NCBI RefSeq assembly: GCF_036588685.1
Contig: NC_086376.1
Location: 61,256,001-61,320,000 of the forward strand
Direction of reading: 5' to 3'
From: Mytilus trossulus
Lineage: Eukaryota
DNA length: 64,000 nt
Part shown: positions 1,351 through 51,155 of the stretch, piece by piece
Layout of the letters: each line of letters starts with the position of its first letter
Numbering within the stretch: position 1 is the first letter of the stretch
Notes under the pieces: generated by a model
Database searches by the model: none
Seen by the model: the letters and a program-made list of their open reading frames with translations, nothing else
What the model was told of the DNA's origin: nothing
Position numbers and translations under genes: made by a program

Positions 1351-2148
1351 ACGATCTCGTCCGGTTCAATTGTTGATTCAACAATCCTATCCTCTATTCA
1401 CTGATTTTAACCTAAAGAATAGCACTTATCACAGAATTGTGCTTTTATGAGCAACATGGCTCATTTTGTTTGCTTCATGTTTCTTAATCTTTATTTTTTT
1501 TATATTTTGTTATTTGACCTTGTGTTTGTTTTTCGGTCTTTTGTTGGTTTTCGTGTTTCACAGTCTGTAGTTTTCTATATTTTGTTATGTGAACTGCTGG
1601 TTGTCTTTAAGACTCTTTTGTTCGGCAGTGACTTGGATGTCTTTTTGGTATCTTGCTCCTCCCTTCAAACGTTTTTTTTTTTTTTAGTTTTTTTTTAGAG
1701 TTTTTCCAGAATAAGCTTCAGATGAAACAAAGTATCAGAGTTTTCCTTATATATCACCACACCTTATTATACTTTAAGTTGTCATATGCAGCACTATTTG
1801 CATCATTGGACAAGCGATAACTTAACTTTCCTGATTAAATAGGTTAGTAATTCCGTTTTCAATTGGCTTTAAGATTTATTATTTGTTTTGTTTACCATGG
1901 AATCTGTTGTAAGCTTGAAGTTATATTTTTTAATATTTTTTTCTGTGGTGTCGACTGTTTTTTCTTTGACCTTAAATATTCCATGGTCTCTTTGAGTATT
2001 TTAGAACTAAATTGCTTATTATTTAAGAAGTTAACCAGAAAACACAAGAATCAATATTCTAAATTCAGTTTAATAAGAATAAATCATAACAATAAATATA
2101 ACAAATTTGTATAAAACTATTGACTTCTACTCAATGATACATGGATTT

Positions 2149-2615
2149 CTAATATGTTCCTTTTTTACCTGCAAAATAAACTAAAAAAGATTATTTCATA
2201 GAAATGTCATAGAATTTTTGTATAAATATTAATTAACATACGGTGGTGATTTTATATCCTATTGTTTAAAGCTGAAGCATAAAATACTTGATGTGCATAA
2301 ATATCTTCGTTTTACTTTTGTGTTAGTTCATTTCTGTTATAAATTGATGTCCTATATATACTATAGTCATTGACCACACAAGTCATTATGATAAATTATA
2401 AAATAGACATTTTACCAAAAAATAAAGGTTTTAATAGAAGATGTATATATAAAAAAGGTTAACCTCAATGAGATAAAGTAATGTTATCAATTAATTATTA
2501 ACAGTTGTAAAGTAGCATTATTGTCCAATCCGATGTTGTGTGAGATATTGTCATCTCTTAGTAATATGTGGTATTCCTATCTATCGTTTCATTGAGTATG
2601 GGGAAAGTCCCCTTA
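2149..2615 (-). pseudogene. Relic fifth paralog of the Gly-rich gene family: promoter, exon 1 and terminal exon with no main coding exon
   Basis: Terminal exon ctaatatgttccttttttac|ctg at 2149-2168 is identical to copies 1, 3 and 4. 2310-2615 aligns with the family exon 1 donor, TATA (cctatatatac), tgaccaca, aaatagacattt and ggttaacc.caatga blocks. Only about 150 bp separates the two exons. Confidence 0.7.
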
Positions 2616-3884
2616 TGTCTTAAACAATGTTTCATGTGGTGTTTTGCTATCGAGTTAAAATTCAATGGAGTTGTTTTACGATTTTTTTCTAATCTCCATG
2701 GTTCTGTTATTTGTACGTTTTCTTTCATATAATATTTTTTATAGTTATACGTATATGGACTTATGTTTCATAATTGCTGCATGATGACTTTTAAAAGAAT
2801 TTCAATGTGTGTAAAGTATCCTTTTTTAGATGGCACTGCATGGTTAAAAATTTATGGAGAGTAGGGTCGAGTATATCGTTAAGGTCATATATGACAGCAC
2901 TATCCACAATCAGGAATCTTATGTACAGTAGTTGTCGTTTGTTTATGTAATTTATACATGTTTCTCGTTTCTCGTTTTTTATGTAGATTAGACGGTTGGT
3001 TTTCCCGTTTGAAGGGTTTTACACGTGTAATTTTGGGGTCGTTTATACATTGTAGCTTTTTGTTCGGTGTGAGCCAATGCTCCGTGTTGAATGCCGTACA
3101 TTGACCTATAATGGTTTACTTTTATAAATTGTTATTTGGATGGAGAGTTGTCTCATTGGCACTCACACCACATCTTTCTATATCTATGCAGTTGGCATCA
3201 AAATGACACATAGATGACCCTATTATTAATACCTGTTTATTTATGATATGTTGCGTTCATAAATCGATTAAGAATGTACAGCTTTGGTTTAACTGAAATA
3301 TTGATACAATATTCATGACGTCCTTAAACTCATTTAGTGATTGCATTTCATTAAACTTAAATACAGTGACCTTAAAAACTGGAGACCACCGAAAGTAGAA
3401 TGTCTGCAACATAAATTGATTATTTTTTTTTATATACAATTACAGATAGAAGGCTTCAAACTAGATTATATAACTTAAGTACCGGGTTCAGCTTTCCTAC
3501 TGTCGACTTCCCACTTCATAACAGTAGCATGTCCTCTGTCATCTTAATTGATATTTTTCATATTATACTGACTTCTTTAACTTTAAATCTCAAAACTGTC
3601 AACCGGGTTAAGCGAAAGATCCATTGATTGACGCCGCATAAAGTGTAAAATCACCATGAATTGGTTGACGATACAATGCGTCTCTATTCTAATTGTATCC
3701 TATTGTATATATTTTGACATTTTGACTGTAAATTTGCACGGAGTATGACGGTTATTTACATATATATTTATATTGGAAATGGAAATGAGGAACATGTCAA
3801 ATAGACATCAACCCAACCAAAGAATAAAAAAACGGACGAAGGACACTGATTATATATATATAATTGCGGTTTTTATCCAACGCA

Positions 3885-4625
3885 ATCATGGGTTTGAACG
3901 TTGTCAAACTCATAAATCGCAAATAAAATGACAACGTCATGGATAAAAATGAAAAAGACAAACAGACAAACAGACAAACAAACAAACAGACAAACAATAT
4001 TACACATGACACAACATAGAAAACTAAAGAATAAGCAACACGAAGCCACCAAAAACGGGGTGCTCTCAGGTGTTCCAGAAGGGTAAGCAGATCCTGCTCC
4101 AGATGTTGCACCCGTCGGGTTGCTTATGTAATAACACATCCGGTAAATAGTCTAATTCGGTAGGTCATATACATGAAAGGGAAGGGGATTGTAGTTACGA
4201 CGTACTGAACATATCCGATATTATTTGTGAAACAGTTATTCCATAATGGTCAACCAACTCATGATGGCGTCCTTAAAATTTACGAAGGGATTATTGCAAC
4301 CTCATCATTTGGAACTCTTGGTTTAATAGCTTCCTTGTGAGCAGCAACCCTCTATCAAAAAAATCATGATAGGAAATGCAAGCACGGGAATATCGTATCA
4401 ATTGGGAGATATATACCCGTATGCAGGTGCTGCTGGAATGTTGGTACTTACAAATGGAAAGTTCTCAATTGGAAAGCTGAGATCATCTCTGTTGTCGTGA
4501 AGTATTGTTTTCAACCGACCCTCGTTATCAATTTCTAAATGTAAGTCAAGATATGAGACCGACTCAACTGTATTTGTTGTATCCGTTATCTCTAGTTCGA
4601 CGGGATAAAGGCGTTCCAAATAGCC
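3885..4625 (-). mobile_element. 5'-truncated Penelope-like retroelement copy (RT C-terminus and 3' UTR)
   Basis: Reverse complement of about 37100-37800. ORF 4398..4811 contains RLYPVELEITDTT..SYLDLHLEIDNEGRLKT; the copy is frameshifted. Confidence 0.9.
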
Positions 4626-6200
4626 ACCAACTAAGTATTTGATAACTATTTGATAACTATTTGCAGTCTTTGCGCCGTGTTTGGAAATTTTAAAATTGCA
4701 CCAGCGTCTCTGATGTTTGTTTAAACTGTTTTTATTTGTATAAATTTCAAGATTGCAATAACTAATTTTTATATAAAATTTATATTTTAGCAGCATTCCA
4801 GAGAGGGACATAAAAAGCTTCCCTTTAAGTGAATAATTTGTTGTTACTGCTTTACAAAAATACTGTTTACTTATAACTTTATATTTATTTAAGGTATGAC
4901 TTAGGAAAACGTTTTCTATTATAGCAGAATATTTGAAATAAGAAAAAAAGGCTTACCAAACCACTTAGTATGGCTTGCTCGGTCATCAAATATTCATGGT
5001 AGAGTCCTACTCTAGGCCAATATTCTCATATTATGTGTTTTCGAGATTCAAGATATTAACCATCAAAGGAGGTTAACCTATGAAATGTTCACTTCCTTTT
5101 CTACCTAGGTACAATATTTAGTAACGATGTAACCCCTTACTTCCAAAATATTCGTAAGATAGATGATATGTATTTTTATGACCCGCAATTTTTTTTTCTG
5201 GAATAAAAAGTAATATCCATTCTCTACAACTGTCAAATTCAAGGGAATATTTTTGTTTCGACCCTACATCGAATGCAACCGGATGTGACATGCAATTTGG
5301 TGTTACACCTTTTCCATTCGTTACATTTGTTGATATAGTCTTACGTTTAATTTTGTCAGTATTTATTGAGTTCCCATGTTTTATATTGAAGTTTGATTTT
5401 TTATTAATACTTTTTTCATATATATACTATCTGGAAGACTTTAAAGGTCGTTGTGCAAGTAAATATATCTAGCATTCAACATGATAATAATGAATCTTGG
5501 CTCTTCTGAAAGAGAATTATCACGGATTAACATGTTGAAAAGGCTGAAGAATCAGAGCTACACATAAAACGTTTAATTGTTGATTCTATTAATATACATA
5601 TAAATAACGTCTTATTGTCATTGAATTGTCATTATTTATGACAGTTATCTTCGTAATTTCTTTTACTTATATGAAATATTTCTGTTTTTATAAAAGAGTA
5701 GTCTATATACCAATTCATCTCGCCATTGTGTTTTTGGGTTATTTTCGTTTTTGTATTAAAATGTCTATATGCTTTTTCGTGCTTCTTTGTTTCATTTTTG
5801 TTTGTTTTTATAGTGGTTAAGATTATAACTCAAAACTGATAGCTGTACCTCTATCTTTGACATTTTTACCTTTAATGTATTATTTTTGTTTGATTTGTTC
5901 ACTCATCGTTGAAAGGATAAGGATATTTCACTCTTATACATACAAATGAGAGGTTTAGGTGGCTATAAAACAAGGTTAAACCCTATATATTCTACATAAG
6001 AAATGCCTGTACCTAGTCAGGCATATGCCATTTGTTATCCATTGGTTTAATGTGTTTGAACTTCAGAAAACAGGAGTTGCATGAAACAATTAAGTACAAT
6101 GAATCCTTTTTAATATACATTTAATATTTATAAACCATTATAAACAAAATAAACAAATTTGTAGAAAATCTCCATCAATTCTTCATTGTCTCCTCCGATT

Positions 6201-7726
6201 CTAATATGTTCCTTTTTTACCTGAAAGGATAAACGATGTTGTTATAATAATTTGGGTGCATTGTATAATAGAAGAAAGAGTTGTGAATAAAGTTCATATT
6301 CTCCAAGTAACTAGTTTGATGTACATTCTACTAAAATTGATCAATCCGCCAGGTTTTTTTTATATTTATTTATGTACCCTCCGGTTGTTTATAAATATTT
6401 ATTCCTCCGTGTATCTCCTTCTTTGTTTTGTTATTATGCTGTGTCAAGTTTTTATAATTTTTGATTCAGAGAATAAGTATTTTAATTAATATAAATTACT
6501 TTAAAAATAGAATACAATGCACTAGGAATAAGAATATAAATCTTTACAACAAAAAGGATATGTCCTTTCATTTTGTATGAAACTCCCTCTCAAATCACAA
6601 TTTGGCAATAATAGTTATTATATAATATTTACAAAATTGTCCATTTATTTTATTTAGTGGTGTTAGATTACTTACCTCTAAATTTACCAAAACTGCCACT
6701 GTGAACGTTTCTTCTATTTATGAGTCCACCATTGACGTTAATACCAAAACCATTCAAACCACCAATACCATGTGATCCTAAACCATTCATACCACTATAT
6801 GATCCAAAACCATTCAAACCACCATATGATCCTAAACCATTCATACCACTATATGATCCAAAACCATTCAAACCACCATATGATCCAAAACCATTCAAAC
6901 CACCATATGATCCTAAACCATTCATACCACTATATGATCCAAAACCATTCAAACCACCATATGATCCAAAACCATTCAAACCACCATATGATCCTAAACC
7001 ATTCATACCACTATATGATCCAAAACCATTCAAACCACCATATGATCCAAAACCATTCAAACCACCATATGATCCAAAACCATTCAAACCACCATATGAT
7101 CCAAAACCATTCAAACCACCAATACCATATGATCCAAAACCATTCAAACCACCATATGATCCAAAACCATTCAAACCACCAATACCATATGATCCAAAAC
7201 CATTCAAACCACCATATGATCCAAAACCATTCAAACTACCAATACCTCCAATACCATATGATCCGTGGTTATTAACACCGTATGCCCCATTAAAACCATA
7301 TGATCCATACACATTTCCTCCAAGTCCTTGTCCGTATCCATAACCCATGAAAGGTCCAATAACTTTGCCGTAAACACCGTTATAACCATAACCACCTAAT
7401 CCATTTAAACCCCTTCCGTTCATGAACCCGTATCCAGGATATCCACTTTGTATATTATATCCATTGTATCCAGAATAACCACCAATGTTTAACGGTGAAC
7501 CGTTACCATACGCGTTGTTGGAAAATCCTCCAGATCCATAACCTAATCTGCCATAAGACGGATATCCGAAGCCACCATTTCCTTGAAATCGAATACTTCC
7601 AATATTACCTGGTCCGAATGGGTTTCCATATGTTTTCAGGTTATATTTGGGACTATATCCTTTCTCTCCGGCCTCGGATGCCACGAGTCCAAAAAGGGCT
7701 AAACCGATCAATAATATTGGTGTCAT
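6201..7726 (-). CDS. Secreted Gly/Tyr/Asn-rich repetitive structural protein, copy 1 (about 356 aa); coding exons 7726-6676 and 6220-6201
   Basis: Signal peptide MTPILLIGLALFGLVASEA and GGLNGFGSY repeats. Donor AGAG|gtaagt at 6676/6675 and acceptor tttcag|GTAAAAAAGGAACATATTAG give ...GKFRGKKGTY*. The acceptor tttcag lies 11 nt before the ATG (exon starts 7737). Confidence 0.9.
6760..7262 (-). repeat. Coding tandem repeat, 27-bp unit (GGLNGFGSY / SGMNGLGSY) with an 81-bp higher-order period
   Basis: ccatatgatccaaaaccattcaaacca repeats directly; the variant ctatatgat..cctaaaccattcatacca recurs roughly every third unit. Confidence 0.95.
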
Positions 7727-8009
7727 GTTTAGTGGTTCTGAAACGATATTCCATTATAATTAACTAATAATAATTTATGTGAAAATTCAAAACATTGACT
7801 TATCAGAACGACAGAACATATAAAGAAAAAAAATAATTGCAAAGATTTAAGACGTAAGTAAAATGAAATGTAAGTTGAATCTATATTAAAAAAGGTCAAA
7901 CTTATCCTGGCGTTTTAAGTTCCTGAAATTTATTTAAAAAGAAAGTAATGCTAAATATATCAAATATGAAAAACATATTTTTTCAAACAAACACAAAACA
8001 TACATTTAA

Positions 8010-11000
8010 GGGGGTACCCAACACTATACCCCAAAAAATTCCTGTCGTTTAATTTTTCTTAATTTTTTTTCATTGATAAACTAGGCCAACCTTAACATCT
8101 TGTAAAAATTTTAAAAGATTTAAACCATAGGTTTAAAAGATTTGGCAATTCAAATATGGCATCTTTTACATACTAGTATCAGCCAAAATTGGAAGTTTCT
8201 GAAATATGGGTATAGGGTTGAATTTGTTAAAAAAAAAAAATTTAATCCGAAATTGACAATAGCATAGCTAATAATGATAGCTGAGGAGAATATTAGTTCA
8301 CTGATACCCCCTTCTTGTAAGTTTTTTACTCCGGTTAAAAAAAATTGCCAAAACTTTACTAGGGGGTATCAGAATCAGCCCTGAAAAGTGAATGCTGTGC
8401 TTCTAGTATTTGAAAAAGAATTTTTTTTGGAAAAAAAATTGTGTCGTTTATTTTTTTCATATAACTAAGCATTTGGAGTGCTATACTAGTTGGTTGTTCT
8501 TGCAAATTTTTTTTAAAATTTAACCGTTAGAATTTTTGGAATTTGAGTTTAAATTAGGCCCAACCCTCAAATTGGTTCATTAAATAAGAGCAAAATCTAC
8601 TCAAAAAGTACATAATGGCCATAATTTTGTTTGTCTTTTGAACTAGGCCTTAGCTATTTGGCATGTGGATGTATCATCACAGGGTTAAGTGTCTTGCATC
8701 ATGATGACCTTTGTGTGACCTTCAAATGTGACCTCAATGTCAACTTTATGGGTGTTTTTCCGTGAAAAACTCAACCATGTAGGCCATCACTTCTTTGCCT
8801 TTTGACCTAGGCCTTACATCTTTGGCATGTGGATGTATCACCATGAGGTGGTGTGCCTTCTTAAAATTTTGACCTTTATATGACCTTGAACTTTGACCTC
8901 AAGGACGATAATTGTGTTTTTTTTTGGTAAGAAACACTTGTCCAGGCCATGACTTTCATGTATTTATGAATTCATATTTATTTTAAAAAATCATATAACA
9001 AAAGCTTTAATCAACCATACAACAATATAGACACATTTTATGACATTTCAAGCCATTCAATGCACATGGAATACAAAATGGACATGTAGTCACATACAAT
9101 TGTTTGAAAAGGGAATCGTTTCTATTGAAGCACAGTGTACGTTCTTAAATACCCAACAGACAGGAGTGAAAACTTTCTAGGAATCAAACAATAGGAGGAG
9201 TTATGCCAAATAACTATATACCAATAAAGGGAGGGACGGACAGGGGTACCCCCCCCCCAAACCTACAATCAGTTGCAGGGGGGACAAAAGGATGTAATTG
9301 ATTTTTGTTGTGAGATAATAGCTGTTAAAATTAAAAGCATGACACACCAAAAATACACATGATACATATGCAAAAGCTTTAAAGTTGGCAGATGCTTTAC
9401 ATGATCAAGATTTCAATTTATTGGTCTTTTAGCCAGATTCAAAAATATACGTTCAAAATATAACGTCAAAACCATTGGTCCAAAGAATTACGGCTTCAGT
9501 ATGAGAGATGAAATAGAGCTGACTGTGCAAAATCCTTATACTGTTAAATCAAGTTTGTTAAACATAGACCTTTTTTTAGTATTTCTGCTAATGTTTATAA
9601 ATATGACAATTAAATACAACAGATTTCTAGTTAAAAGCACGGCAGTTACAAGTTTCACATTATTTTGGGCCCCTTATTATGATTGAGAATGATTACTCTA
9701 TTCGGTAATAATCTTAAATTTAGACTTGAAAATATACATTTTCACATATATATATATAATTGTCACTTGCAACAACACCACACTTTCTTTTTTATATTTA
9801 TTTCAAAATTGCATTTGATTAAAAAAATCGGAAAGATACACAAACATGATAATGGAACAACAAAAGAAAATAACAAATTTTGCTATCCCTTCGGAATTGA
9901 AATTTGATAAAGCGAAAATAACATGTTCTATTTATATCATTCATGTGTAGTTTCAGTTTCAACTATGATTCTAAATATAGACTTTACTTTCCCTAAAATT
10001 GCGGACGGAATAGAAGACACCCATTAATTTTCTACACATGTCAAGATATTAAAGGTTGGAAAAAGCTACTAGAAAGATATAGTTATTTTTTTATTCAGAT
10101 GAATATAGAAAGCAAAAATATGTGTAGTGTTTTTTGGACTGAATGAGATGTTTTTTTCTTCTTTTCCCTTGTTCCGTGACATGTTAATGATACACTGGTG
10201 GTTGAGCTAGTTTCCCTCTGGTTATCTTCGAACTTTTTACATGAATATAAATCATTCAATAATATATTCAATTGCACTTTAAATAATATGACAGCTATTA
10301 TAAAATCATGAATTATTCGTAATCTTTTTAACATTACTACATGTATTACTAAGGCCATAGAAAAATACTATAGTTTCGTTTAACAATAGTCCAAACTACA
10401 GAAGGCGTCCCAGAAAAAAAATTAAGATAGCCTTGCCAGACGTCTTAATTATTTGGACTAGTTTAACAAAAAAAAAAGTTTGAGAAGTCAATTCAGTTTT
10501 GATTTAATCAATTTGATATAAAGAAGATCTATGAACATAAGCATTGTGTAATTGTCCAGGGATTCTTATTTATTTGGTCAAAATTTTATTGTCGGAGGGA
10601 GCTACCATTTGAGAGAAGGGTAGGAGGGGTCCTTGTCCCGAAATCCCGGCTTAAAAACACGAAATCCCGAGATCCGAATTTAGATAAATTTAAATCCTGA
10701 CATCCCGCGAAAGGGTCAATCCTTAAATCTTGACAATAGAAACAGTCGATCCCGGAGTCCCGATAAAGGTCCTATCCACACTCATTTGAGGAGGGGGCTA
10801 GATGAAACTTGAAAAAGGCAAGACAGGCTTTGGAACAAACAAAGGCAGGATCAGTAATTTAGCATAACAGGATGACAATTTATGAAAACAATTTCAGTAA
10901 ACTAATGAAAATCACAGGTCTGTAAAGAATGAAAAATAAAAAAATGCAGGCCGATAATATAATGATGAGTTCATGCAACTATAAAAAAAAATGCAGGACA

Positions 11001-11427
11001 AAGTTTTTTAAATCCTAGCCCTCCCCTCTTAAAATCAAATGGTAGCATCCTTAGACTTTTTACACTTTATTACATTTTATTAAAGTCCTACATGTAGGCA
11101 TTGCCAAGTAAAAAACGAAAACAGTTATGGTCCCTTCTCTTTCTGTTTCCCTCCTTTTCAAACGTCCTTGTTTTCTTTTGGTTAATTTATTTCACTTTGA
11201 AATTTCCCTATTAGGTCTCATTGAAGGTTCATTTATTGAAAATAATTAACTTTAAATTCTTTTTAAGGATTAAATGAATAACAAAGGGTGTACAGCTGGT
11301 CTTAGCAATAATGTAAACATTCTGATCATGATCTTTTAAAAGCTTGCATATTGCACATAATTTTAAAACGCAACAATGAATCAGACTATGAGTAAGAGTT
11401 ATCTTTTCTGAGGTGTTCTGTACCCCC
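8010..11427. mobile_element. Non-autonomous TIR DNA transposon with TTAA target duplication (Kolobok-like) in intron 1 of copy 1
   Basis: TTAA|GGGGGTACccAACAC ... GTGTTctGTACCCCC|TTAA. The paralogous intron in copy 2 (29771-29790) shows the empty site. Confidence 0.85.
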
Positions 11428-11449
11428 TTAAAGTATAGCAACTGCTTAC

Positions 11450-11730
11450 CTTTGTGTCGTTCTGTGATGGCGGGTTCCTTGTGGTACTCTGTGATCGTTG
11501 TCCTTTAAATACCATACTTACTGACCAAACATTTGTAATAATCTGTTATAGAATAGACATTTGACAATGATAAAAGTGTGTCTATTTAAACATGATCGAA
11601 AATATAGCCATCAATTATGTGTTTCTATTGTTTTACTTGCTGTAATCATCGTGGTTTGTGGAGTTTCACCTATCAATAAAATTTAATTTATACTACATGT
11701 GTAATTTAGTTTTAAGGGAAATTCTTCATT
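11450..11730 (-). promoter_or_regulatory. Non-coding exon 1 (donor at 11450) and promoter of copy 1
   Basis: caaag|gtaagc donor; TATTTAAA at 11504-11511; the block is conserved upstream of all paralogs. Confidence 0.75.
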
Positions 11731-16517: not shown

Positions 16518-18790
16518 ATGGATGGAAACAACCCTAATCATTTAACCAGACATGGACGTACTAGGCCATGGACAATTAATGGAGATGCATTTAACATAGG
16601 AAACAGATGTGGCACACGTGTAATTGGTAAATATTTCATTCTGTAGTTTACTGCTTTTTTTTTCAGTATAATGATCGTTCTTTCGCATTTTTTTCGAGCA
16701 TACGAGCGACGTTCAAAATATTCACTCTGTGGTTAAAGTTTTCAAAATTTTAAAAACTTTCTTAAACTATCCTGGATTTCTACTAAACTTCGACAGAAGC
16801 TTGTTTATGTTCACAAGATAGTATCCAGAATTAAATTTTGTAAAAACAAAATTTCATTTTTTCCGTATTTTACTTATAAATGGACTTAGTTTTTTCTGCA
16901 GGAATCATATTACATTCACTCTGTGGTTAACATGGTTAAAGTTTTTAAAATCTTAATAACTTTCTTAGACTATCCTGGATTTGTACCAAACTTAGACAAA
17001 AGCTTGTTTATGATCCAGAAGTAAATTTTGTAAAAGAAAATCAATTTTTTTCCGTTTTTACTTATAAACTGACCTAAATTCTTCTATTTAACATTACATA
17101 CAGTCAGCAGTTAAAGTTTTTAAAACATTTATTAGATTCAGAAAATATCCTGGATTTTTACCAAACTTAGACAGAAGTTTCTTACGATCAAAAGATAGTA
17201 TTGAGAGGAATGTTTTATTGATTTTGTTTCTTCATTTTTGTTGAGTGTGCGATTACTAGCAAGAGTAGGCAAGACACCGGATTCCGCAGAACCGTTACGA
17301 GTTTTTAAGATTTACTAAAACATATTACTCTGATGCAACGTATTATTAATTCATGCGCGTCTGAACTGAAGTGTAATTTTATTTTCTGTTTAGAGCAAAT
17401 TAAACGCGGAATTTACCCAATTCAAGTATAAATATTATTTTCATTCATCCGGATTTCGCATTCCACATTTTATTAACATCCTCATTAAGTCATTACTCCA
17501 GTTTAATATAAGATAATATATCTATCTAAACTCAAACGGCCTTCGCCTATATATGCAAATTTGTTTTTCTTTCTTTAGATACCGATATTTGTTTGTTTAT
17601 ATGTTTATTAATATGTTTTTATGCTGTACCCATATTATTAACATTTTACCTTTTACGTCTGTTTTTGTGGGTTTATTTTCACCAATTATTGTAAGTATAA
17701 TGAATTTTATGAGACTGTCATACAAGTGAGAGGTTGGGCTTTCCAAAATCGTGTTTTATCCACCATTTTCTACACAAGGAAACAAGTGTGTTCCATTTAC
17801 CAAAACTTACATTAGTTAAAAGTGACACAATGTAACTAGGACCGGTGGGTCTGTTTTCTTTTCTTTGGTATAGACGTTGTGTCTTGATAATATTCCTCAT
17901 TACATTCTCAATTTTATACTTTGTCTATATACATATTTAAATTATTTTTCAACGTGACTTATGTTTTTTTTTCAGATTCTGAAGACAGCGACGAAAACAT
18001 CAATCTTTTGCAAAATTCACAACCAACATCAGAAATGACAGCAAATACAAATATTTCCGAGAATGCTGGGAAGACTCAGGGTACTAGTAGTCAGAATCAC
18101 TCCGATAAAAGTCCTAAAGTCCTCATTCTGCGAGATGATATTGATAATGAAACACTTACAAGCGCTTACATCAATTCAGATAGCTCAGACGAAAACATTA
18201 GTGGTAAAAAAGAGATATCTTCAAACGAACAAAGTATTGCAAAACGATGTAAAAGATTGTCTTCTTATATATTTGTAGTACTACTAAACGCACTAGTTAG
18301 TGTTGCAGTAAGTGTTGGACTGTATAACTATATAGTGTGTGTAGATAGCACACGACATGTTTTAGCAAAGGAACCTATGTTTGTCAATTTGAAGGTCAAC
18401 TTCGATGCATACAGTCAAAAGGTTAAAAACACGTCTGTTAAAATTCCATGGACATTTCAAGACGCATCATTTCTCATTTTAGACGATAACAGCACAGATA
18501 TCACTATCCTCCAGCCTGGATCATATTCAGTCGATGTTTCGTTGAATTTTTTTAACAGACGAAATAACGACTCAAAGCCTATATATATGTGTATTTTAAA
18601 CAGTTTAGATAGAACTTACGAGCGGTGCACCCCTGAAGTTATTCCAGCAGGCATACAGAGGTCTGTGACCGTTAGAATTGATATGAACTTGAAAAAAAGC
18701 GATATAATTTGGGTCAATGTTAAGGGAGCAAATCTAATTTACGAACGTTCTGATGCAAACCACATGACTATTAGAAAATATAGATTTTAG
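16518..18790 (+). CDS. TNF superfamily ligand-like type II membrane protein (about 307 aa); exons 16518-16626 and 17976-18790
   Basis: TM helix YIFVVLLNALVSVAVSVGLYNYIV follows basic KRCKR. The C-terminal ~140 aa has a TNF-domain pattern (IPW, ITILQPGSYSVDVSLNF, LKKSDIIWVNV). Acceptor ttttcag at 17975 is phase 1 and matches the phase-1 donor ATTG|gtaaat after MDGNNPNH...TRVI. Confidence 0.8.
16672..17306 (+). mobile_element. Non-autonomous element with internal ~190-bp tandem units and a 3' hairpin (pearl/Helentron-associated type) in the TNF intron
   Basis: Three repeats of gttaaagtttt..aaa...tatcctggattt..accaaactt.gacagaag, plus a terminal imperfect palindrome ggattccgcagaacc. Confidence 0.6.
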
Positions 18791-28004: not shown

Positions 28005-28578
28005 AAATATAAAATTCTAATCCTGGCATCTATGATGAGTTTATTAGTTTATAATCTTATATATAATTTCACATATCTTTATCTTCTATATTTGGTTATT
28101 TGTATTATTGCGTTTCATTTCTGCTAATATGCCTTGTCTATATGCCCTTTTAAGCTTCTTTGTTACATGTTTGTTTTTATAGTGATTGAGAATATAACAC
28201 AATGTTGACTGCTGTAGCTCTATTTTTTTACATTTTTACATGTTTACCTATTATGTCTTATTTGTGTTTGTTTTGTTCACACATCGTTGTAAGGATAATG
28301 AAATTGATGCGACTGTCATACAAGTTCAAGTTTCAGGTAGCTATAAAACCAGGTTTAATCCAAAATTTTCTACAAAAAAAGTGCCTGTACCAAGTCAGGA
28401 ATATGACAGTTGTTATCCATTTGTTTGATGTGTTTAAGCTTGAGAACACAGGACTTGCATGAAAAAATCAAGTACAATACACTATTTAATATTCATTTTA
28501 TTATTTACAAACCATTACAAACAAAATAATCAAATTTGTAGAATACCTTCATGAATTCTGCAATGCCTCCATGGAAAG

Positions 28579-29502
28579 TTAATATGTTCCTTTTTTACCT
28601 GAAATGATAAAACAATGTTCACATAATAAGTTGATTACATTGAATTATTGAAGGAAGAGTTGTGAATTAAGCAAATTCTCTTTTGATTCAGAGAATAGGT
28701 ATTTTAATCAGGATTAATCATTTTCAAAATAGAATACAATGCACAAGGAAAAAGAGAATAAATCTTCACATCAAAAAACAATATGCCATTTTGTAATGAC
28801 ACTCGCTTTCAAATAACAATTTTTCAATTGTTGTTATATTATATTTATAAAATTTCGATTTTATTCTATTTAGCGATCTTATATTACTTAACTCAAAATT
28901 TGCCAAAACTGCCAAACCCACTGTGACTGTTTCTTCCATTTATGAGTCCACCATTGACGCTAATACCAAAACCATTCAAACCACCTATACCATATGATCT
29001 AAGACCAATCAAACCACCATATGATCCAAAACCATTCAAACTAACAATACCGCCAATACCATAAGATCCCAGATTATTAACACCGTATGCCCCATTAATG
29101 CCATATGTTCCATGCATATTTCTTCCAAGTCCTTTGCCGTATCCATAACCCATGAAAGGTCTGATTCCTTTACTGTATACTGTATTCTCCTTCCGTTCAT
29201 GAACCCGTATCCAGGATATCCACTTTGTACACTATATCCATTGTATCCAGAATAACCACCAATGTTTAACGGTGAACCGTAACCATACGCGTTGTTGGCA
29301 AATCCTCCATATCCATAACCAAATCTACCATAAGACGGATATCCGAAGCCACCATTTCCTTGAAATCCAATACTTCCAATATTACCTGGTCCGAATGGGT
29401 TTCCATATGTTTTCAGGTTATATTTGGGACTATATCCTTTGTCTCCAGCCTCGGATGCCACGAGTCCGAAAGGGCTAAACCGATCAATAATATCGGTGTC
29501 AT
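28579..29502 (-). pseudogene. Gly-rich secreted protein copy 2, pseudogene
   Basis: Close to copy 1 but has a 1-nt deletion in the signal peptide (about 29468), a net 28-nt loss at 29161-29188, AGA>TGA at 28893-28895 and donor GT>TT at 28891. Terminal exon is 28579-28598. Confidence 0.88.
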
Positions 29503-31510: not shown

Positions 31511-34500
31511 ATAGTTCCATGTCATTAAATTGACCAAAAACATATTTTAAGATTTGATTTAAATAAATTTTTACTGTAACTTTGAAACACATATCTTTTT
31601 TTAAAAGGTTATTAAGGATTGTTATGAAAGTTCATGATATTAAATTTTTGTTTTAACACAAAAAGGTGTTTATTTGGTTTAAGCTGATTTGAAAAAAATG
31701 TAATCTTAAAAAAGACACCATTTTGTGTTGTTAAAACAAAAATTTAATATGAGGAAAGATATATTTCTAATATCGTAGCTTTTTGACCTAGATTAATTAA
31801 ATTCTTAAATTTGACAGAAGTACACAAAACTAAATAACAACCTATGATTCAGTAAGATCAATATATTGCGAAGATAGTTGTAGAGTTTGATGAAAATCTA
31901 AGTTGAATTGAAAAAAATAAAATGACCTGGGATTCAGTAAGCTTAATGTATATCTAAGATAGCTACATAGTTTGATGAAAATCCAAGTTGATTTGAAAAA
32001 GTTATTAAATAAATTAAAGTGTACTATCTCTATTTTATCTGAACTGTAAATCCTAGCTTTTTTTTTTAACAAGATAACTTAAATTCTTAAATTTTACAAC
32101 AATACAACAAATAACTAATTGACCTGGGATTCAGTAAGCTTAATATATATCTAAGATAGCTGCATAGTTTGATGAACATCCAAGTTGATTTGAAAAAGTT
32201 ATTGAAAAAACTAAAGTGTAGTATCTCTATTTTGTCCGAACTGCAAATCCTAGCTTTTTTTTACCAAGATTACTTAAATTCTTAAATATTACAACAAATA
32301 ACTAATTGACATGGGATTCAGTAAGCTTAATATATTTGTAAGATAGCTGCATAGTTTTATGAACATCCAAGTTGATTTGAAAAAGTTATTAAAAAAATTA
32401 AAGTGTACTATCTCTATTTTGTCCGAACTGCAAATTCTAGCTTTTTTGACCTAGATTAATTTTATTCTTGAATTTGACAGCAATACAACAAAAAATAAAA
32501 TGACCTGGGATTCAGTAAGCTTAATATATATCTAAGATAGCTACATAGTTTGATGAAAATCCAAGTTGATTTGAAAAAGTTATTAAAAAAAATAAAGTGT
32601 ACTATCTCTATTTTGTCCAAATTGCAAATTCTATCTTTTTTGACCTAGATTAATTTAATTCTTGAATTTGACAGCATGTCAACAAAAAATAAAATGACCT
32701 GGGATTCAGTAAGCTTAAAAAATTAAAGATGCCCATCTGAATTTATATAATAATTTTTACCTATTGTAAAATTAAATTCTTTCATTTCACAGCAATAAAA
32801 AAAAAACTACCTAATAAGCTTGAATATTGAAAGATCATTACTTAATTAAGTAAGATTGGCGGATTTACACCAGTCTAAACTAAATTTGAAGGTCAAGACT
32901 TGTCGAGACAGGTCGAGACTGGTTGAGACTGAGTCGAGACTAGTCGAGACAGGTCGAGACTAGTCGAGACAGGTCGAGACTAGTCGAGACAGGTCGAGAC
33001 TATCCAAGACAGGTCGAAACAGGTCGAGCCTTGGCCAAGACTATTTCAGACTACACAAAGATCATCAAGTACTGAATCAGACTAATTAAGTAAAGTCGAG
33101 ACCTAGTCGAGTACACTTAAGTACAGTTAAGTACAGTCGAGACAATGTCGAGACTAGTCGAGTAAAATGTGTGCTCGATTTTACTGGTCGAGCACAAAAA
33201 CTGGTCAATTCAGACTCTGAGCAGTTTATAGTGTAAGTTTTTGGATGTCTATGAATTAGATAGCACCACAAACTTATTCTCGGCGAATATGAATATTCAT
33301 CAAATGGTTTCTTGTGATGGGAAATACACTGAAATGCAGTCAACTTTCGCGTTTGATAGTTTAATAATTACATAAGATGTATGTTTCATTATAATACCTT
33401 ATTCTGAATGGCTAAATGCACATCACATGTTAATCCGTAAGCAATTGCATCAGACAATAAAACTTATCATTCATAATGACACGAGGTCCTACAAAAAAGT
33501 GCACAGGTGAATTAAATAAAACTCTATAAAAACCGTGTTTTCATGATCCTAGCTAAAAAAAAATCAAATTATAAGTAATGATTGCTTCTTTTTGTAACTT
33601 TATAGGGTTGTAAAAGCGTTGACCGTGCGTACATTTTTAGAATGAGGCGCCTCCGCGCTTCATACAAAATGTACTTCGGTCAACGGTTTTACAGCTAATA
33701 AATTTATAAAAAGAAGCATTCAATTCTTAATTGTTAACATTCTGGCGTATTACAAACAAACAACTTGTTACGTCTCATTTCATTGGTCGAAAGATTTAAA
33801 TACAACAACAATGTAGTCAGTGTGCACGCAAATTGACACAGGTGACCGACAATGGAATTTACTATGTTACTACGAACGTAAAACACTGATTTGTATAGTT
33901 TATAAACCTTTGTTCAAAAGAATTAGATAAATGTTTTGTTAACTTCAAATAGTAGGGTCGAAATATTATACTGATATTTTGTTTTAAGTAATATTCTAAG
34001 TTCTTTATGCATGCAGCAATTCAATTGTCTTTTAACCGGCATGATGAGAAATATAAGGATAAAATAAAATACATGTGGCGCTTTTATACGGATGAATATA
34101 TGAACCACTTTCAATTTCTTTCATACTGACGATAGGTTATAATCCTAACAATTTCGTAGTCACTTATAATAAGTATCTCACAATACTGATCCTTTACAAT
34201 AATTAATGAGGGGTTGCACTGACATTCCTCTTTTATTTTTTTCATGCTATAAAACATACACACAGTAGCTATAAGCGTACCATATACGGGGGAAATTGTC
34301 CCCCAAAGATAGAAACAAAATAACTTACATCGTATCATTTCTGCACCTGAATGAATTCAGTGAACGAAGGCATGTTGTTGTAATAAATTGAAATGTTATA
34401 TCGGCGAAGATTATTTCTTTTGCATGTTTGGAACTAATTACTAAATCAATCTTTGTGAAAAATGTCGTAGTTTATAAGGAACAATTCTCGTTTGAATTGT

Positions 34501-38275: not shown

Positions 38276-39563
38276 TGGTTTATTACATCAGTACATGTGA
38301 GTTTTACAGGTAAAAAGAAAGCCCTTTTTTTTCTCAAACTCGTGTATTTCTTATCTAGTGAATTAAAAAAGCTTTGCGATTTAAATTTCACAGGATGTTG
38401 CGACTTTGAATAAATGTTATTTAGAATTCAAAACTCTCTGGTAGATGTGATCTTTTTCTTATTCTTACAGTTGATGTTGTACTTCGTGACATGGATTTGT
38501 TTTCTCGCAATATGTCTATGACTTTTGATCGAAAGTATACTACTGTTGCCTTATTTATATATCAATCTGTAACCTTCCAACTGATTTAGTGTTCAACGTC
38601 ACAATCAGTCTGCAAAAAGCATGACCTTTTACAGTTAAGTTTTGAAGAGTCGTATTTACATTTACATGCATTAAAAATAAAACGATTGCCAAAATTATGA
38701 TGTTGTTGTTGTTATTGGTTTTGGGAGGTGGCTTAGTTATGTAGTAATTGCTCCTTAAATTCATATATATAAATATTATGTATATATACTTTCAGTCTTT
38801 AATTTTATTTTTAGTATTAAGTTTTGTCGTGTAACTATATGAAACTTTGACGAACATGGTTGACTGAATTACTAGGAAATATATATATATTGAGAGACAA
38901 AAAAAAGCAAAAAAAACCCACACATATCAGAAGGTACATGTACTATGAAAAATTATTATGTGAAATCGTGTAAGTCAAAAGGGCTCTACATGACCATGCA
39001 GCAATACTGCCTAATCCAATCTGTGTATATATGTGAACGTCAAGATAAGAGACAGACTTAATTGTATCGTGTATCCAGTTAATGGAAAAGTTGGAAAAGA
39101 TGTGTTCAGCATAGTCACAAAAAATTGCACTACTCAGTAAGAGAAAAACATTTTCTTAGTATATAGCAACAAAAAAGTTAATGAATACTGCCAACATTTT
39201 TTCTTTCATCATCAAAAGTTCCTGTATAAAGTCATTTTCCAGTGAAATAAGGAAAACCTCGCAAAGAATAGTAATTTCATTTCCATGTGATAAGTAAGGT
39301 TTAATATCTTGCATGGGGTTTTTTTCTTTCGAAAATGTTGGCTTTTGTTTCTCGTTTTATCTTTTTGGTCGCAGTAATTCGTCCACAAATGGTTTTCAAT
39401 TGAAATGTTTATATCTCTATATTTCCATTAAATGGTATTATAGAAAACAAAACGTGCATGAAAAATCAAGAAGAAAAAGATTTATATTTATTTTAATATT
39501 CATAAACCATTATAAAAAAATCTATAAAACATCGACATCAATTCATCATGGACTTCTTGGATT

Positions 39564-41719
39564 CTAATATGTTCCTTTTTTACCTGCAATGACAAAAATA
39601 ATGTTGAAATAATAGCTGATTGCATTGCATTATTAAAGAAAGATTTCAGTTCATATTCTCAAAAGATTTTGTTAAATGTACATTCCGCTAAAATTTCTCA
39701 AACTTTCAGTTTTATGTCTTCTACGGTCGTTCATATCTGTTCTTATTCTTCCGTACATCTCCTTCTTTTCCTTCAGTTTTTCAGGTTTGATTTAAATAAT
39801 TGGTATTAAATTAATCTAAATAATTTTCAAATCAAACAAAAAGAATGCACAAGGTTTATGGAAAACGACTTGTCGCATACAATTTCAAAGCTTATTTCAA
39901 ATTTTTCAAAACCTTTCAAATCAATAAAATTGAGAAAGGAAATGGTAAATATGTCAAAGCGACAACCACCCGACCATAGAGCAAACAACAGTCGAAGGCA
40001 ACCAATGGGTCATCAATGTAGCGAGAATTCCCGCACCCGTAGGTGTCCTTCAGCTGGCCCCTAAAATATGCATAATAGTACAGTGATAATGGACGTCATA
40101 CTAAACTCCGAATTATACACAAGAAACTCAAATTTAAAATCATACAAGACTAACAAAGGCCAGAGGCTCCTGACTTGGGACAGGCGCAAAATTGCGGCGG
40201 GGTTAAACATGTTTATGATATCTCAATCCTCCCCCTATACCTCTAGCCAATGTAGAAAAGTAAAAGAATAACAATACGCACATTAAAATTCAGTTCAAGA
40301 GAAGTCCGAGTCCGATGTCAAAAGATGTAACAAAAGAAAATAAATAAAATGACAATAATACATAAATAACAACCGACTACTAGCAGTTAACTGACATGCC
40401 AGCTCCAGACCTTAATTAAACTGATTGAAAGAGTATGCCTTCATCATATGAATATCAGGTACAATCCCTCCCGTTAGGGGTTTAGTATCATACTATCATA
40501 AAATATATGAAAAGAACATAACCCGTGTCATGCCAACAACTGTGTTTTTAGAAATAAATGTGTTTAGTTTCATGTTCATTTGTTTATACCTTGCTATGCT
40601 TAAGTCTTAGTTTAGAAATATCAATAAAGTCTCCATAGAGTGAAGCATAAGCAATCAATGTAATATTGTAACAAAGTATTTTACCATATACCACCAAAAG
40701 TTATAAATTATCCAATTCATTCATCATGCGGCATGATTTGTTTAACGATTTCCTTTCACACATATTCGTTTGTCGGAACAACGTGACGAACGAATGTCAT
40801 TTTGTATGAAACCCTCTTAAGTTACAAGCTGGCAACTGTATTTGTATTATAATTAGAAAATTTCACATTTACATAACAACTTTTTCTTCTTTTTAGTGAT
40901 GTAGGATTACTTACCTCCAAATTTACCAAAACTGCTCAATCCACTTAGACCTCGTCTTCCATTTATTAGTCCACCATTCACACCAATACCATTACCATTC
41001 AAACCACCAATACCATTACCATTCAAACCACCTACACCGTATGATCCAGAACCATTTAAACCACCAATACCATGAGATTTATAACCATTCAAACCTCCAA
41101 AACCGGATGATCCAAAACCATTTAAACTACCAATACCACCAATACCATATGATCCAAAGTTATTCAAACCACCATATGATCCGAAACCATTCAAACCCTC
41201 ATATGATCCAAAACCATTCAAACCACCAATACCATATGTTCCGTAATTGTTTGCACCACCGTATGCCCCATTAATACCATATGCTCCATAACCATTCAAA
41301 TTGTTATATCCTTCAATTCCTCGACCGAATCCATTACCATTAAAAAGTCCGATATTTTTACCGTTAAAACCGTAATTTTCATTACCACTGAATCCGTTCA
41401 ATCCTCTGCCATGTAGATATCTGTATCCAGGATATCCACTTTGAATACTATATCCATTGTATCCAGCAATACCACCAATGTTTAATGGTGAACCGTAACC
41501 ATAGGCGTTGTTGGAATATCCCCCGTATCCGTATCCTGATCTACCATAAGTTGGATATCCAAATCCACTATATCCTTGGTATCCAAAACTAGCAATATTA
41601 CCTGGTCCGAATGGATTTCCATATGTTTTCAGGTTATGTGTGGGACTGTATCCTTTTTCACCGGCCTCCGATGCAACGAGTCCGAAAAGCACAAAAGAAA
41701 TCAATACTATTGGTGTCAT
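39564..41719 (-). CDS. Secreted Gly/Tyr/Asn-rich protein, copy 3 (about 274 aa); coding exons 41719-40915 and 39583-39564
   Basis: The true start is MTPIVLISFVLFGLVASEA (acceptor at 41731). Same donor and acceptor as copy 1, giving ...GKFGGKKGTY*. AATAAA lies about 75 nt past the stop. Confidence 0.9.
39924..40571 (+). mobile_element. Dispersed repeat inserted in the last intron of copy 3
   Basis: Absent from the matching intron of copy 4 (tcaaatcaatgttcatttg at about 49390). Starts aataaaattgagaaaggaaatgg like other copies. Confidence 0.85.
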
Positions 41720-41940
41720 GTTTGTTGGTTCTGAAACGATTTTCAATAATTCGTCAAAATAAAAAAAATAATAATAAAACCTTTAAAACATAAACAAAAA
41801 CGGATCACCGAAAATGCTTAAGTAGATTAATGAAAGATAAAAGTTGTAAATAAAATATTGAGTTATGACGAATTATGACGATTAACATGATCTTTTGTGA
41901 GAGAAAGACGAATATCTTTTAAAGCAAATCAAGTACTTAC

Positions 41941-42260
41941 CTCTGTAATGATCTATGCTGGTGTGTTCCTTGTGATACGTATTGTTTACTGCGTCTTATA
42001 TAATATACTCACTGACCACACATTATGTTATAATCAGTTATAAAATAAACATTTAACAATGATAAACCTGTAAAGTGGGTTTAATTAACAAACAAAACCC
42101 CCAAAAAAACGGTTTACCACAATGATAGAAAATATTGTCATCAATTATTTGTTGCTATTATTTTACCCTTTGTTATCTTGGTTTAGGGACTTTCACCTAT
42201 TAGTAATATTTGAAATTCATATAATACAAGTGTAATTCAGTATTAGGAAAATTTCCCATT
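41941..42260 (-). promoter_or_regulatory. Non-coding exon 1 (donor at 41941) and promoter of copy 3
   Basis: agag|gtaagt donor, TATATAA at 41996-42002, conserved upstream blocks. Confidence 0.75.
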
Positions 42261-46692: not shown

Positions 46693-49035
46693 ATAACTAG
46701 ATACCTGAATGTTGGATGAATAAATACCGAAACACGTCGTATAGCAATGCAAATTCACAAGCCAAAACACAGTACTATTCGGAAAAAGGTCACGTTCGGT
46801 AATTAGCAGAAGAAGACATAGATTTCAAACCACAATCTAAGCAGACGTGGTCAAGGGTCGTTAATTAATTTCAGCAATCATCATAAAGATCAACCAATTC
46901 ATGATGTTGCCCTAAAAGCAAACAAACAAACAATATAACATAACACACAACATAAACACCCAATGACTAAGCAACACGGACCCCCCCCCCCCTAAAACAT
47001 TGGGATGATCTAAGACAAACAGACAAACAATGCTACATAAAATATTAACCCGGCAAGTCTAATTTACGGAGTCTCATGAAAACCATTTTTGATACCTGTG
47101 GTAGTCGTGTTTTTAAACCAGTGTTCATTCTTATGGAAACCAAATGTGCCTTTGATTTTCTTCTAGTATTCTTATTCTTTCGTTAAAACAAGGTAAAATT
47201 CAGAGATGTGCTTTTCAAGATGAATTTCAAGAACATAGATTTATCCTTAAATTTGAGTTCATGTTGTATACTATTGTTTTCTCTTTGAATAATTCATAAT
47301 GAAAACAAGAAGATATGGTATAATTGTCAATGAGACAACCCCACATGGCATTGACGTAAGCAGATCCAGGTCACCCTACGACCATCGAAATGATAAAAAA
47401 CAATATCATCTACCTATATAAATCTAGAATATATCGCGCCATTCCAACTAATCTCAAAATAAGAGGATGTAATAGATAGTGTAGGTCTAATAATATCGCA
47501 AATAACATAACCTTGTCGAGGCACCTGGTCTTCATCAATTTTCGATTTCATGAGTCTCTTCTCATTTTGTAATTTGTTTTCAACTATTCTAGTAGATTTG
47601 AACTATTGACATTACAACTTGGTTTATTATATAGACATTAAAACATGGTGTATCATAACGAAACCTCTCCGTCGTAGATCTAAGTGCAATACCATGGTTT
47701 TAGTGTTTTGTTTTCATCTTTTTGTTGATTTTCAAGTTGACCAATCTTTTCTAGTGACGTGTAAAATATTATGTACTGTTTTGATTTTTTTTTGTTTTTT
47801 TTATAATAGAGTTCAGAAATTATTGCAGGGTTTTTATAAATGTGAATGGTGCGACTAGGTGCATTCCTACATCTGATACATTTTTCTAAGTAGACATTTT
47901 TCAAAAATCCCAATAATTTACTGTCACTTTTGTTAAATCTACAAATATTGAAATATTTTTTTATTTGCAGTTGTTGTCTCAGAATGAACGAAGTTTTTAT
48001 TTGCAAATCATACGTTGCCATATACCGTTCTCTTTTCTTCGACATCACCGAATAATGAAACAAAAATAAAAAGTATATCTGGAATGAGCAACACAGAAGT
48101 GTTTCGCAAAAGCAGAAGGCTAGTTCAATATGATTTCAACTTATATCTAACCATGGTTGTCAGACTTATATTGTTTCTTAAAATGTCCTGAACCAAGTCA
48201 GTTAACTATTGTTTCGTTGTTTTATTCTTACACTTGATGTTGTACTTCGTGAAATTGGTTTGTTTTCTCTCAATCTGTTTATGACTTTTAATCGGAGGTA
48301 TACTACTGTTGCTTTTATTTATATATCAATCAGGAACCTTCCATCTGATTTAGTGTTCAACGTCACAATCAGTTTGCAAAATGCATGACTTTTTACAGTT
48401 AAGTTTTGAGGAGCCGTATTTATATTTACATGCAATAAAAATAAAACGACTGCCAAAATTATGATGTGATATTATGTTAGTCATAAGGACGCTACATGAC
48501 CATGCAGTAATACTGCTTTATCCAACTTGTCTATAAATGTGAACGTCAAGATAAGATACAGACTTAATTGTATCTCGTCTGCAGTTTAATGGGAAAGATG
48601 CTTTCAGCTTAGTCACCAAAAATTGTATTATTCAGCAAGAGAAAATCATTTATATAGCAAAATGAAAAGTTAATGGATACTGCCAACATCTGTTCTTCTT
48701 CATCAGACGTTTCTGTATAAAGTCAGGCTCCTGTGAAATAAGGAAAACCTCGCCAATAATTGTTATTTCATTTCCATGTGATAAGCAAGGTTTATTTTCT
48801 CGAAAATGTTTTGTTGGCTTTTGTTTCTCATTTTACCTTTTTGGTCGCAATAATTCGTTCACATATTGTTTTCAATTGAATTGCTTCTCTATATTTCCAT
48901 TAAATGGTACTATAGAAAACAAAACGTGCATGAAAAATCAAGAAGAAAGAGATTAAAATTTATTTTAATATACATAAACCATTATAAAAAAAACTGTAAA
49001 ACATTGACATCAATTCATCATGGACTTCTTGAATC

Positions 49036-50630
49036 CTAATATGTTCCTTTTTTACCTGCAATGATGAAAACAATGTTCAAATAATAAGGTGATTGCATTG
49101 CATTATTAAAGGAAGATTTCAGTTCATATTCTCAAAAGATTTTGTTAAATGAACATTCCGCTAAAATTGCTCCAAAAAAACTTTCGGTTTTATGTCTCCT
49201 ACGGTTGTTCGTATCTTTTCTTATTCTTCCGTACATCTCCTACTTTTCCTTCAGTTTTTTATGTTTTATTTAGATAATTGGTATCAAAATAACTTTCAAA
49301 TCAAACGAAAAAAATGCACAAGGTTAATGGAAAACGACTTGCCCCATACAATTTCAAAACTTATTTAAAAAAAATCAAAACCTTTCAAATCAATGTTCAT
49401 TTGTTTATTCCTTGCTATGCTTTAGACTTAGTGTATAATTAAAGATAAATTCTTCATAGAGTAAAGTATAAGCAATCAATTTAATATAGTAACAAAATAT
49501 TTTACCATATACCACCCCATCTTAAATAATTATCCAATACATTCATCATGGAGCATGATTTGTTTTCCGATTTCCTTTTACTCATATTCGTTTGTCGGAA
49601 CATTAATCTAAATCAATTAACGTGACGAACGAATGTCATTTTGAATGAAACACTTTCAAGTAACAAGTTGGCAATTATATTTGTATTAATATTATGAAAT
49701 TTCACATTTAAATAACAACTTTTTCCTCTAGTAGGATTACTTACCTCCAAATTTACCAAAACTGCTCAATCCACTTAGACCTCGTCTTCCATTTATTAGT
49801 CCACCATTGACACCAATGCCATTACCATTCAAACCACCAATACCGTATGATCCAAAACCATTTAAACCACCAATACTATAAGATCTATAACCATTCAAAC
49901 CACCAAAACCAGATGATCCAAAACCATTTAAACTACCAATACCACCAATACCATATGATGCAAAGTTATTCAAACCACCATATGATCCGATACCATTCAA
50001 ACCACCATATGATCCAAAACCATTTAAACCACCATATGATCCATAACTATTTAAACCACCAATACCATATGTTCCGTAATTTTTAGCACCACTGTATGCC
50101 CCATTTATACCATATGCTCCATAACCATTTAAACCACCAATACCATATGTTCCGTAATTGTTAGCACCACCGTATGCCCCATTAATACCATATGCTCCAT
50201 AACCATTTAAATTGTTATATCCTCCAATTCCTCGACCGAATCCATTACCATTGAAAGGTCCGATATGTTTACCATAAACACCGTAATTTCCGTTACCACT
50301 GAATCCGTTTAATCCTCTGCCATGTAAATATCCGTATCCAGGGTATCCACTTTGTACACTATATCCATTGTATTCATTATAACCGCCAATGTTTAATGGT
50401 GAACCGTAACCATATGCATTGTTGGAATATCCCCCGTATCCGTATCCTGATCTACCATAAGATGGATATCCAAATCCACCATGTCCTTGGTATCCCAAAC
50501 TACCAATATTACCTGGTCCGAATGGATTTCCATATGTTTTCAGGTTATGTTTGGGACTGTATCCTTTTTCACCAGCCTCCGATGCAACGAGTCCAAAAAG
50601 GGCAAAGGAAAGCAATACTATTGGTGTCAT
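49036..50630 (-). CDS. Secreted Gly/Tyr/Asn-rich protein, copy 4 (about 301 aa); coding exons 50630-49745 and 49055-49036
   Basis: Start MTPIVLLSFALFGLVASEA; same splice sites; ends ...GKFGGKKGTY*; closest to copy 3. Confidence 0.9.
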
Positions 50631-50826
50631 GTTTGTTGGTTCTGAAACGAATCCGTTAAATAAAAGAATAATTATAGTACCTTCAAAAATAAGCAAATAC
50701 GTATAATCGAAAATGAAATAAAAAAGTTGCAAATAAGATATTGAGATGTATATACAAAATATGACGTTAAACATGATCTTTTGTGAGAGAAAGACAATTA
50801 TCTTTTAAAGCAAATCAAGTGCTTAC

Positions 50827-51155
50827 CTCTGTAATGATCTATGCTGGTGTGTTCCTTGTGATACGTATTGTTTGCTACGTCTTTTATAATATACTCACTG
50901 ACCACAAATTTTGTTATAATCAGGTATAAAAAAGACATTTAACAATGATAAACCTTGTATTATAAAATTGGTTTTTATTCAAAAAAAGAAAGAAAAAAAG
51001 GTTAACCACAATGATAGAAAATGTTGTCATCAATTATTTGTTGCAATTGTTTTCTCCGTTATTCTCATCGTCGTGGTTTGGGTTATTTACCTATGAGTAA
51101 TATTTGATGTTCATATAATGCAAGTGTAATTCAGTATTACGAAAATTTCCCATTT
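50827..51155 (-). promoter_or_regulatory. Non-coding exon 1 (donor at 50827) and promoter of copy 4
   Basis: agag|gtaagc donor, TATAAAA at about 50882-50888, homologous to the copy 3 promoter. Confidence 0.75.

Follow-up and report, generated by a model that had tools for sequence, protein, structure and literature searches.

The window analysed here, a 64,000-nucleotide stretch of Mytilus trossulus DNA, contains AGGTAAAAAAGGAACATATTAR five times, in each case on the minus strand and with 0 mismatches (Table 1). Only 0.01 matches are expected by chance, and 0 of 100 shuffles gave five. The acceptor context at every copy is AG/GTAAAAAAGGAACATATTAR (in splice-site sequences the slash marks the exon boundary), and we named the copies by the position of this acceptor: E (2168), A (6220), B (28598), C (39583) and D (49055). 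We found three of the five loci, A, C and D, to be intact genes. The original prediction spoke of five loci with identical six tail codons; the codons are indeed identical in all five while the intact genes are only three. It also gave the donor of the intact copies as G/GTAAGTAA, which we confirmed at 6676, 40915 and 49745, and the corresponding acceptors are preceded by pyrimidine-rich tracts.

Judging by conservation, copies A to D are each predicted to have a TATA-like block, a short and probably non-coding first exon with an AG/GTAAG donor, and an acceptor that precedes the ATG by 11 nt. Copy E is devoid of the glycine-rich exon 2, and its promoter/exon-1-like block lies about 150-200 nt upstream of the acceptor. 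Intron 1 has about 3.7 kb in gene A compared to 180-290 nt in B, C and D, which suggests insertions in intron 1 of gene A.

Table 1. Positions of the tail-exon copies and of other features in the window (position 1 is its first letter), with related positions in distant loci
Feature	Position	Strand	Basis
Matches to AGGTAAAAAAGGAACATATTAR	2149-2170, 6201-6222, 28579-28600, 39564-39585, 49036-49057	minus	exact word
Gene A block resembling a promoter, with a putative exon 1 (short, non-coding) and its donor AAAG/GTAAGC at 11450	11450..11526	minus	aligns with the block upstream of B, C and D
Gene A intron 1	7738-11449	minus	between exon-1 donor and exon 2
Gene A exon 2, ATG at 7726, 11-nt leader, phase-1 end after ...FGKFR	6676..7737	minus	open reading frame and acceptor context
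Gene A intron 2, 455 nt, GTAAGTAA...TTTCAG, phase 1	6221..6675	minus	splice-site sequences
Gene A last exon, coding part: finishes G, then K-K-G-T-Y-stop	6201..6220	minus	sequence and tail in 11 of 19 relatives
Gene A 3' UTR, ATTAAA at ~6125 and ~6114 (putative poly(A) signal)	6100..6200	minus	predicted from sequence
Copy B pseudogene, acceptor 28598, stop codon after tail TAA	28480..29875	minus	frameshifts and donor G/TTAAGT at 28892
Gene C: exon-1 donor 41941, ATG 41719, donor 40915, intron 2 of 1331 nt, last exon from 39583	39470..42017	minus	sequence
Gene D: exon-1 donor 50827, ATG 50630, donor 49745, intron 2 of 689 nt, last exon from 49055	48940..50903	minus	sequence
Copy E: promoter/exon-1-like block (~2375-2310), intact last exon, acceptor 2168	2050..2400	minus	alignment
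Family N-terminal motif	7630-7675, 41625-41670, 50535-50580; also L001-L004	minus (window)	
3' UTR word TTCTACAAAT(A/T)TG	6154-6166, 28531-28543, 2102-2114; L002 2448-2460	minus	
299-codon open frame	17891-18790	plus	
Arms of 1.7-kb inverted repeat	32152-33852, 34806-36473		93% identity
Degraded frame with YIDD word	36435-37418	plus	
Degraded frame with YIDD word	3903-4952	minus	
Exon of neighbour gene	62378-62743	plus	Pfam Tmpp129 (PF10272, E 9e-17)

The window as a whole is AT-rich animal DNA and holds several other features. A 299-codon open frame on the opposite strand, flanked by gene A on one side and copy B on the other, encodes a hydrophobic stretch and a C-terminal domain, and found 0 matches in Pfam and 0 in the PDB sequence search. 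The arms of the inverted repeat contain 194-nt tandem units and resemble the foldback type. Two degraded frames of a dispersed repeat carry a YIDD word, and we take them to be reverse-transcriptase-like. The exon that matches Tmpp129 belongs to a neighbour gene and is a possible synteny anchor.

Exon 2 encodes a hydrophobic, signal-like start (judged by eye), then a motif that reads EAGEKGYSP(K/T)(Y/H)NLKTYG in the window genes, then GGLNG(F/Y)GSY repeats. In gene A the motif is KGYSPKYNLKTYG, the repeats are GGLNGFGSY and the exon holds a 27-nt array with 17 units. Exon 2 alone accounts for 268-350 codons, and its product has 32-35% Gly, 10-12% Tyr and 11-12% Asn (35%, 11% and 11% in A). Lysines are found mostly at both chain ends (in gene A at 22, 27, 31, 121 and 348, plus the tail), and the glycine-rich core between these ends has no acidic residues. 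With its signal-like start the product is likely secreted. Six proteins were scanned against Pfam, with 0 families for the four belonging to this family; the PDB sequence search gave 0 matches, and the top score in the ESM Atlas, 0.82, is inside the chance range.

The last exon starts with 20 coding bases, and the 3' UTR that follows can be aligned in 5 of 5 copies, each of which carries ATTAAA or AATAAA at a distance of 86-96 nt from the acceptor. The original prediction of a hidden 20-nt terminal exon is thus not borne out in either respect: the UTR up to the poly(A)-like hexamer adds to the coding bases, and 11 of 19 database relatives already end in GKKGTY. We dropped the reading as a microexon, since the UTR with its hexamer extends the exon in all five copies, and the sequence suggests that this last exon is an ordinary one with a length of roughly 110-125 nt. 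The 3' UTR word TTCTACAAAT(A/T)TG is common to A, B and distant loci, nearly present in E and absent from C and D; its occurrence in A, B and L002 is a weak observation, picked post hoc and matched by 3 of 100 and 21 of 200 shuffles.

All named homologue matches are from Mytilus (11 of 13; the other two are unnamed), and a profile search of the full library gave three matches below 1e-10, none of them new. The Mytilus models CAC5421008.1, XP_052098898.1, XP_076105186.1, XP_063431383.1 and XP_071170219.1 have the N-terminal motif, the repeats and GKKGTY as in the window genes. The family models carry only the names 'uncharacterized', 'keratin-associated protein-like', 'prisilkin-39-like' and 'acanthoscurrin-2-like'. 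The relatives ending in GKKGTY come from M. coruscus, M. galloprovincialis, M. californianus, M. trossulus and M. edulis; all 11 are gene predictions and eight are RefSeq XP_ entries. We therefore consider the exon and the GKKGTY tail, which are already in public gene models, very likely to be real. A literature search found no functional study of this Mytilus family, and another on the exon structure of byssal genes found nothing. A full-text search on the family motifs, with most subscription papers and bioRxiv supplements outside its coverage, returned no mollusc paper by title.

An end in GK occurs in 0 of the 19 relatives. In seven the chain continues directly past G-K into unrelated sequence (LSQII, LFQTIQWEDK twice, LSEIIKW.., FFQIIQWKDK and NIF.. 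twice); these were judged from the protein, and none belongs to the MTPI subfamily of the window. Two clusters at 90% identity mix both forms (P0005 with P0015, P0007 with P0018), so that the read-through-type models are most simply explained as translated intron, one model splicing where the other reads through. The database models P0002, P0005, P0006, P0011 and P0018 apparently stop short of the last exon, their ends being translated from intron. The sequence layout, the conservation of the tail and the non-conservation of the stop are shown by these data.

A pattern scan led to four distant loci, L001 to L004, whose first 39 residues fit the family profile (96% probability and E 4e-9 for L002). 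L001 and L002, which are closely related to each other, have a candidate phase-1 donor, AAAG/GTATTT, weaker than that of the window, and about 800 nt on a pyrimidine-rich TTTCAG acceptor leading to ..KK-G-K-S-Y-stop. Reading through the candidate donor in L001, L002 and L004 gives GIY..PRVK and no GK-stop. A GKSY tail is likely in L001 and L002 given this predicted splice, while the read-through could be the true end. The sequence of L004 ends short of an acceptor, and in L003 a comparable tail exon was looked for and not found. The last homologue search found only three unnamed read-through-type proteins and no annotated GKSY match, and 0 of 319 pattern matches in a metagenome scan were confirmed as related loci. 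The family motif, E-x-G-x-[KR]-GYSP-x-[YH]-N-[LI]-[KR]-x-YG, is conserved more deeply than the tail and reaches Perna; it may be a better functional lead than the tail.

The junction from 6676 to 6220 had been proposed as the test of the splice, and we looked for it in positions 1500-6800. Four of 24 runs were aligned, as contigs and with no tissue label, three of them presumed RNA; 23 of the 24 contained less than 0.2 of the query words. A 189-nt contig of run X2 matches 6672-6799 and continues with 14 unaligned letters. Spliced and unspliced forms share GTAA (6675-6672) and diverge at 6671, so a break at this position is what a spliced molecule would produce. The contig is a weak hint of splicing. 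No joint from 6676 to 6220 or to 2168 is among the 15 joints listed of 37, in data where gene A is barely covered and dispersed repeats dominate. Intron 2 positions 6279-6632 are without a contig in all four runs, at the same very low cover.

The unspliced frames of A, C and D stop after G-K, as the original prediction had read from the DNA, and two explanations had been offered for this stop: a switch between protein forms, or a by-product of the GTAAGT consensus. A G/GTAAG at a phase-1 donor always gives the G-K reading. The window has 18 G/GTAAG sites; three serve as donors of the intact genes, and of the remaining 15, 2 likewise read GK-stop; the non-coding first introns share the AG/GTAAG donor with intron 2. 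These observations favor the by-product, and we consider the GK-stop likely to be a consequence of the G/GTAAGT consensus rather than a switch. It is conceivable that retention of the last intron, or cleavage within it, is regulated and yields a protein that lacks the tail and ends in ...GK, perhaps followed by trimming and amidation, with less cross-linking or altered sorting. The TAA directly after the donor region is kept in A, C, D and pseudogene B, an AATAAA lies 22-27 nt into intron 2 of A and B, and a stop codon in a last intron would generally be expected to escape nonsense-mediated decay. However, the four window copies are not independent: they are paralogues with 55% invariant columns over the first 100 bases of intron 2, so shared descent suffices for the common TAA. 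The donor-proximal hexamer is absent from C and D, the stop is missing in 7 of 7 read-through-type relatives as well as in L001, L002 and L004, and a GK-stop also arises at 2 of the 15 other G/GTAAG sites in the window. The absence of GK ends among the 19 relatives also goes against a switch. The retained form is a reading of the DNA; no RNA evidence for it was found, at a cover too low for this absence to count either way. Amidation follows the pattern x-G-[RK]-[RK], which the spliced G-G-K-K fits at least as well, so the amidation idea does not tell the retained from the spliced form. We regard a regulated switch as very improbable. Also very improbable is a wider scenario in which the matrix proteins of a mytilid-wide family bear, at either end, Lys/Tyr tags for cross-linking or sorting, the one at the C-terminus has its own exon (GKKGTY in Mytilus, GKSY in distant loci) and the MTPI intron stop has been fixed so that retention gives a tail-less terminator tuning cross-linking.

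Returning to the spliced form, the original prediction set an invariant tail against widely differing repeats. The tail is identical throughout, but exon 2 too has two 22-nt runs that are invariant across A to D and identical stretches of 14-16 residues. One explanation for the invariance is that the splice is real and the tail has no special job, its six residues being kept by recent paralogy, codon bias and perhaps an exon-definition constraint near the acceptor; this agrees with our preferred reading on splicing and departs from it on function only. The equally long runs in exon 2 would fit it. The tail uses the preferred codons of the family (AAA for 16 of 16 Lys, ACA for 10 of 11 Thr), and the rough probability of six identical codons in A, C and D, given conserved residues, is 0.2. 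The tail adds one Tyr to the 28-37 per protein that come from exon 2 and cannot be the sole DOPA site, and distant relatives likely end differently, in GKSY. Against a tail without function, the identity spans two subfamilies that are about 60% alike and five Mytilus species, and in copy E 22 of 22 bases of tail DNA persist although its UTR is only 55-61% identical to the other copies. Ends combining basic residues and Tyr also recur in the shematrins and KRMPs described in PMC3896809. The retention of the tail across subfamilies, species and copy E points to selection on it, and we find a tail without a special job possible, if somewhat doubtful. By comparison with the ends of KRMPs and shematrins, Lys together with the terminal Tyr could plausibly serve in cross-linking. 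Copy E itself may reflect a recent deletion, a misassembly or an alternative last exon of gene A, spliced from 6676 to 2168 to give the identical peptide with another 3' UTR. The 22 conserved bases and a strong pyrimidine tract, kept despite the missing exon 2, would suit such an exon, as would the position of E, 4.5 kb downstream of A and in the same orientation. Yet a promoter/exon-1-like block of its own lies just upstream of E, as would be expected if a separate paralogue had lost exon 2 or the assembly were locally wrong, and no joint to 2168 is among those listed at very low cover; we consider an alternative exon improbable.

Shematrins, framework proteins of the Pinctada shell, also have glycine-rich Tyr repeats and a short basic end in Tyr and form a multigene family; the C-termini listed for them include RKKKY, RRKKY and RRRKY as well as IRRKK and PRKKY (PMC3896809). 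The window proteins likewise appear to be secreted and glycine-rich with Gly/Tyr repeats (signal judged by eye). Their tail is GKKGTY and not an R/K run followed by Y, a similar chemistry in another motif, and they have Asn-rich GGLNG(F/Y)GSY repeats and an N-terminal motif of their own. No Pinctada protein is among the named matches, in searches limited by low complexity. As the exact C-terminal signature is absent and these searches showed no sequence link, we rejected shematrin identity; in function the proteins may correspond to a shematrin-type framework protein, while their sequences set them apart from shematrins.

In KRMPs, according to the description in PMC3896809, a Gly/Tyr-rich region precedes a short basic and Tyr-bearing end, as in the window proteins; quinone tanning is proposed for this region in PMC3191542, and that of KRMP-3 is described as binding chitin (PMC4498902). 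A, C and D lack the Lys/Trp-rich domain that follows the signal peptide in KRMPs, and at about 200-355 residues the proteins of the family differ from the ~10 kDa KRMPs, so that this identity was rejected on both counts; the homologue and profile searches showed no sequence link to KRMPs either. Mytilus byssal thread matrix proteins (TMPs) are rich in Gly, Tyr and Asn; the window proteins resemble this general description in composition alone, and none of the homologue matches carries the TMP name.

In Perna viridis, the peptide GYSPAHNLR of Unigene4671 is listed from acid-insoluble nacre (PMC6641155, S4 Table), a detection by one peptide among 277 proteins. Unigene4671 has a signal-like start, EKGQRGYSPAHNLRTYG as a distant form of the family motif, and glycine-rich repeats. 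It differs in its GGY repeats, is partial without a C-terminus and is nearer to L003 than to the window genes. The family motif is absent from the searched supplements of two Mytilus-containing shell proteomes (PMC4517812 and PMC5854119) and from those of PMC8382897 and PMC4944945. The basic and Tyr-bearing tail is a known kind of end, shared with shematrins and KRMPs, and the family itself consists of uncharacterised mytilid matrix proteins whose gene structure is ordinary.

Taken together, these results make it highly probable that the locus holds tandem genes, likely with three exons each, whose product is a matrix protein rich in Gly, Tyr and Asn and likely secreted; that a phase-1 intron, likely constitutive, leaves GKKGTY together with the 3' UTR to the last exon; and that the GK-stop is likely a by-product. 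We infer the splicing in this mussel, the secretion and tissue of the protein, and its cross-linking, if any. The spliced protein would be the usual product, its basic and Tyr-bearing end held by protein-level selection while the repeats expand and contract within exon 2. The Lys/Tyr-rich motif after the signal peptide and the tail would give the chain charged, cross-linkable ends around a glycine-rich core, and the chain would become part of an extracellular matrix that is insoluble, most likely the shell framework. Byssus, periostracum or another tissue may instead be the site, since the Perna match is one peptide of a distant clade and the two Mytilus-containing shell proteomes are without the motif.

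Cross-linking controlled by a genuine splice switch would be of greater importance, but the evidence leads away from such a switch. What emerges is an unnamed mytilid family now defined by two short end motifs and a common gene layout, several public models of which apparently lack the last exon. Its six-residue tail offers a simple handle on the role of basic and Tyr-bearing ends in shell framework proteins.
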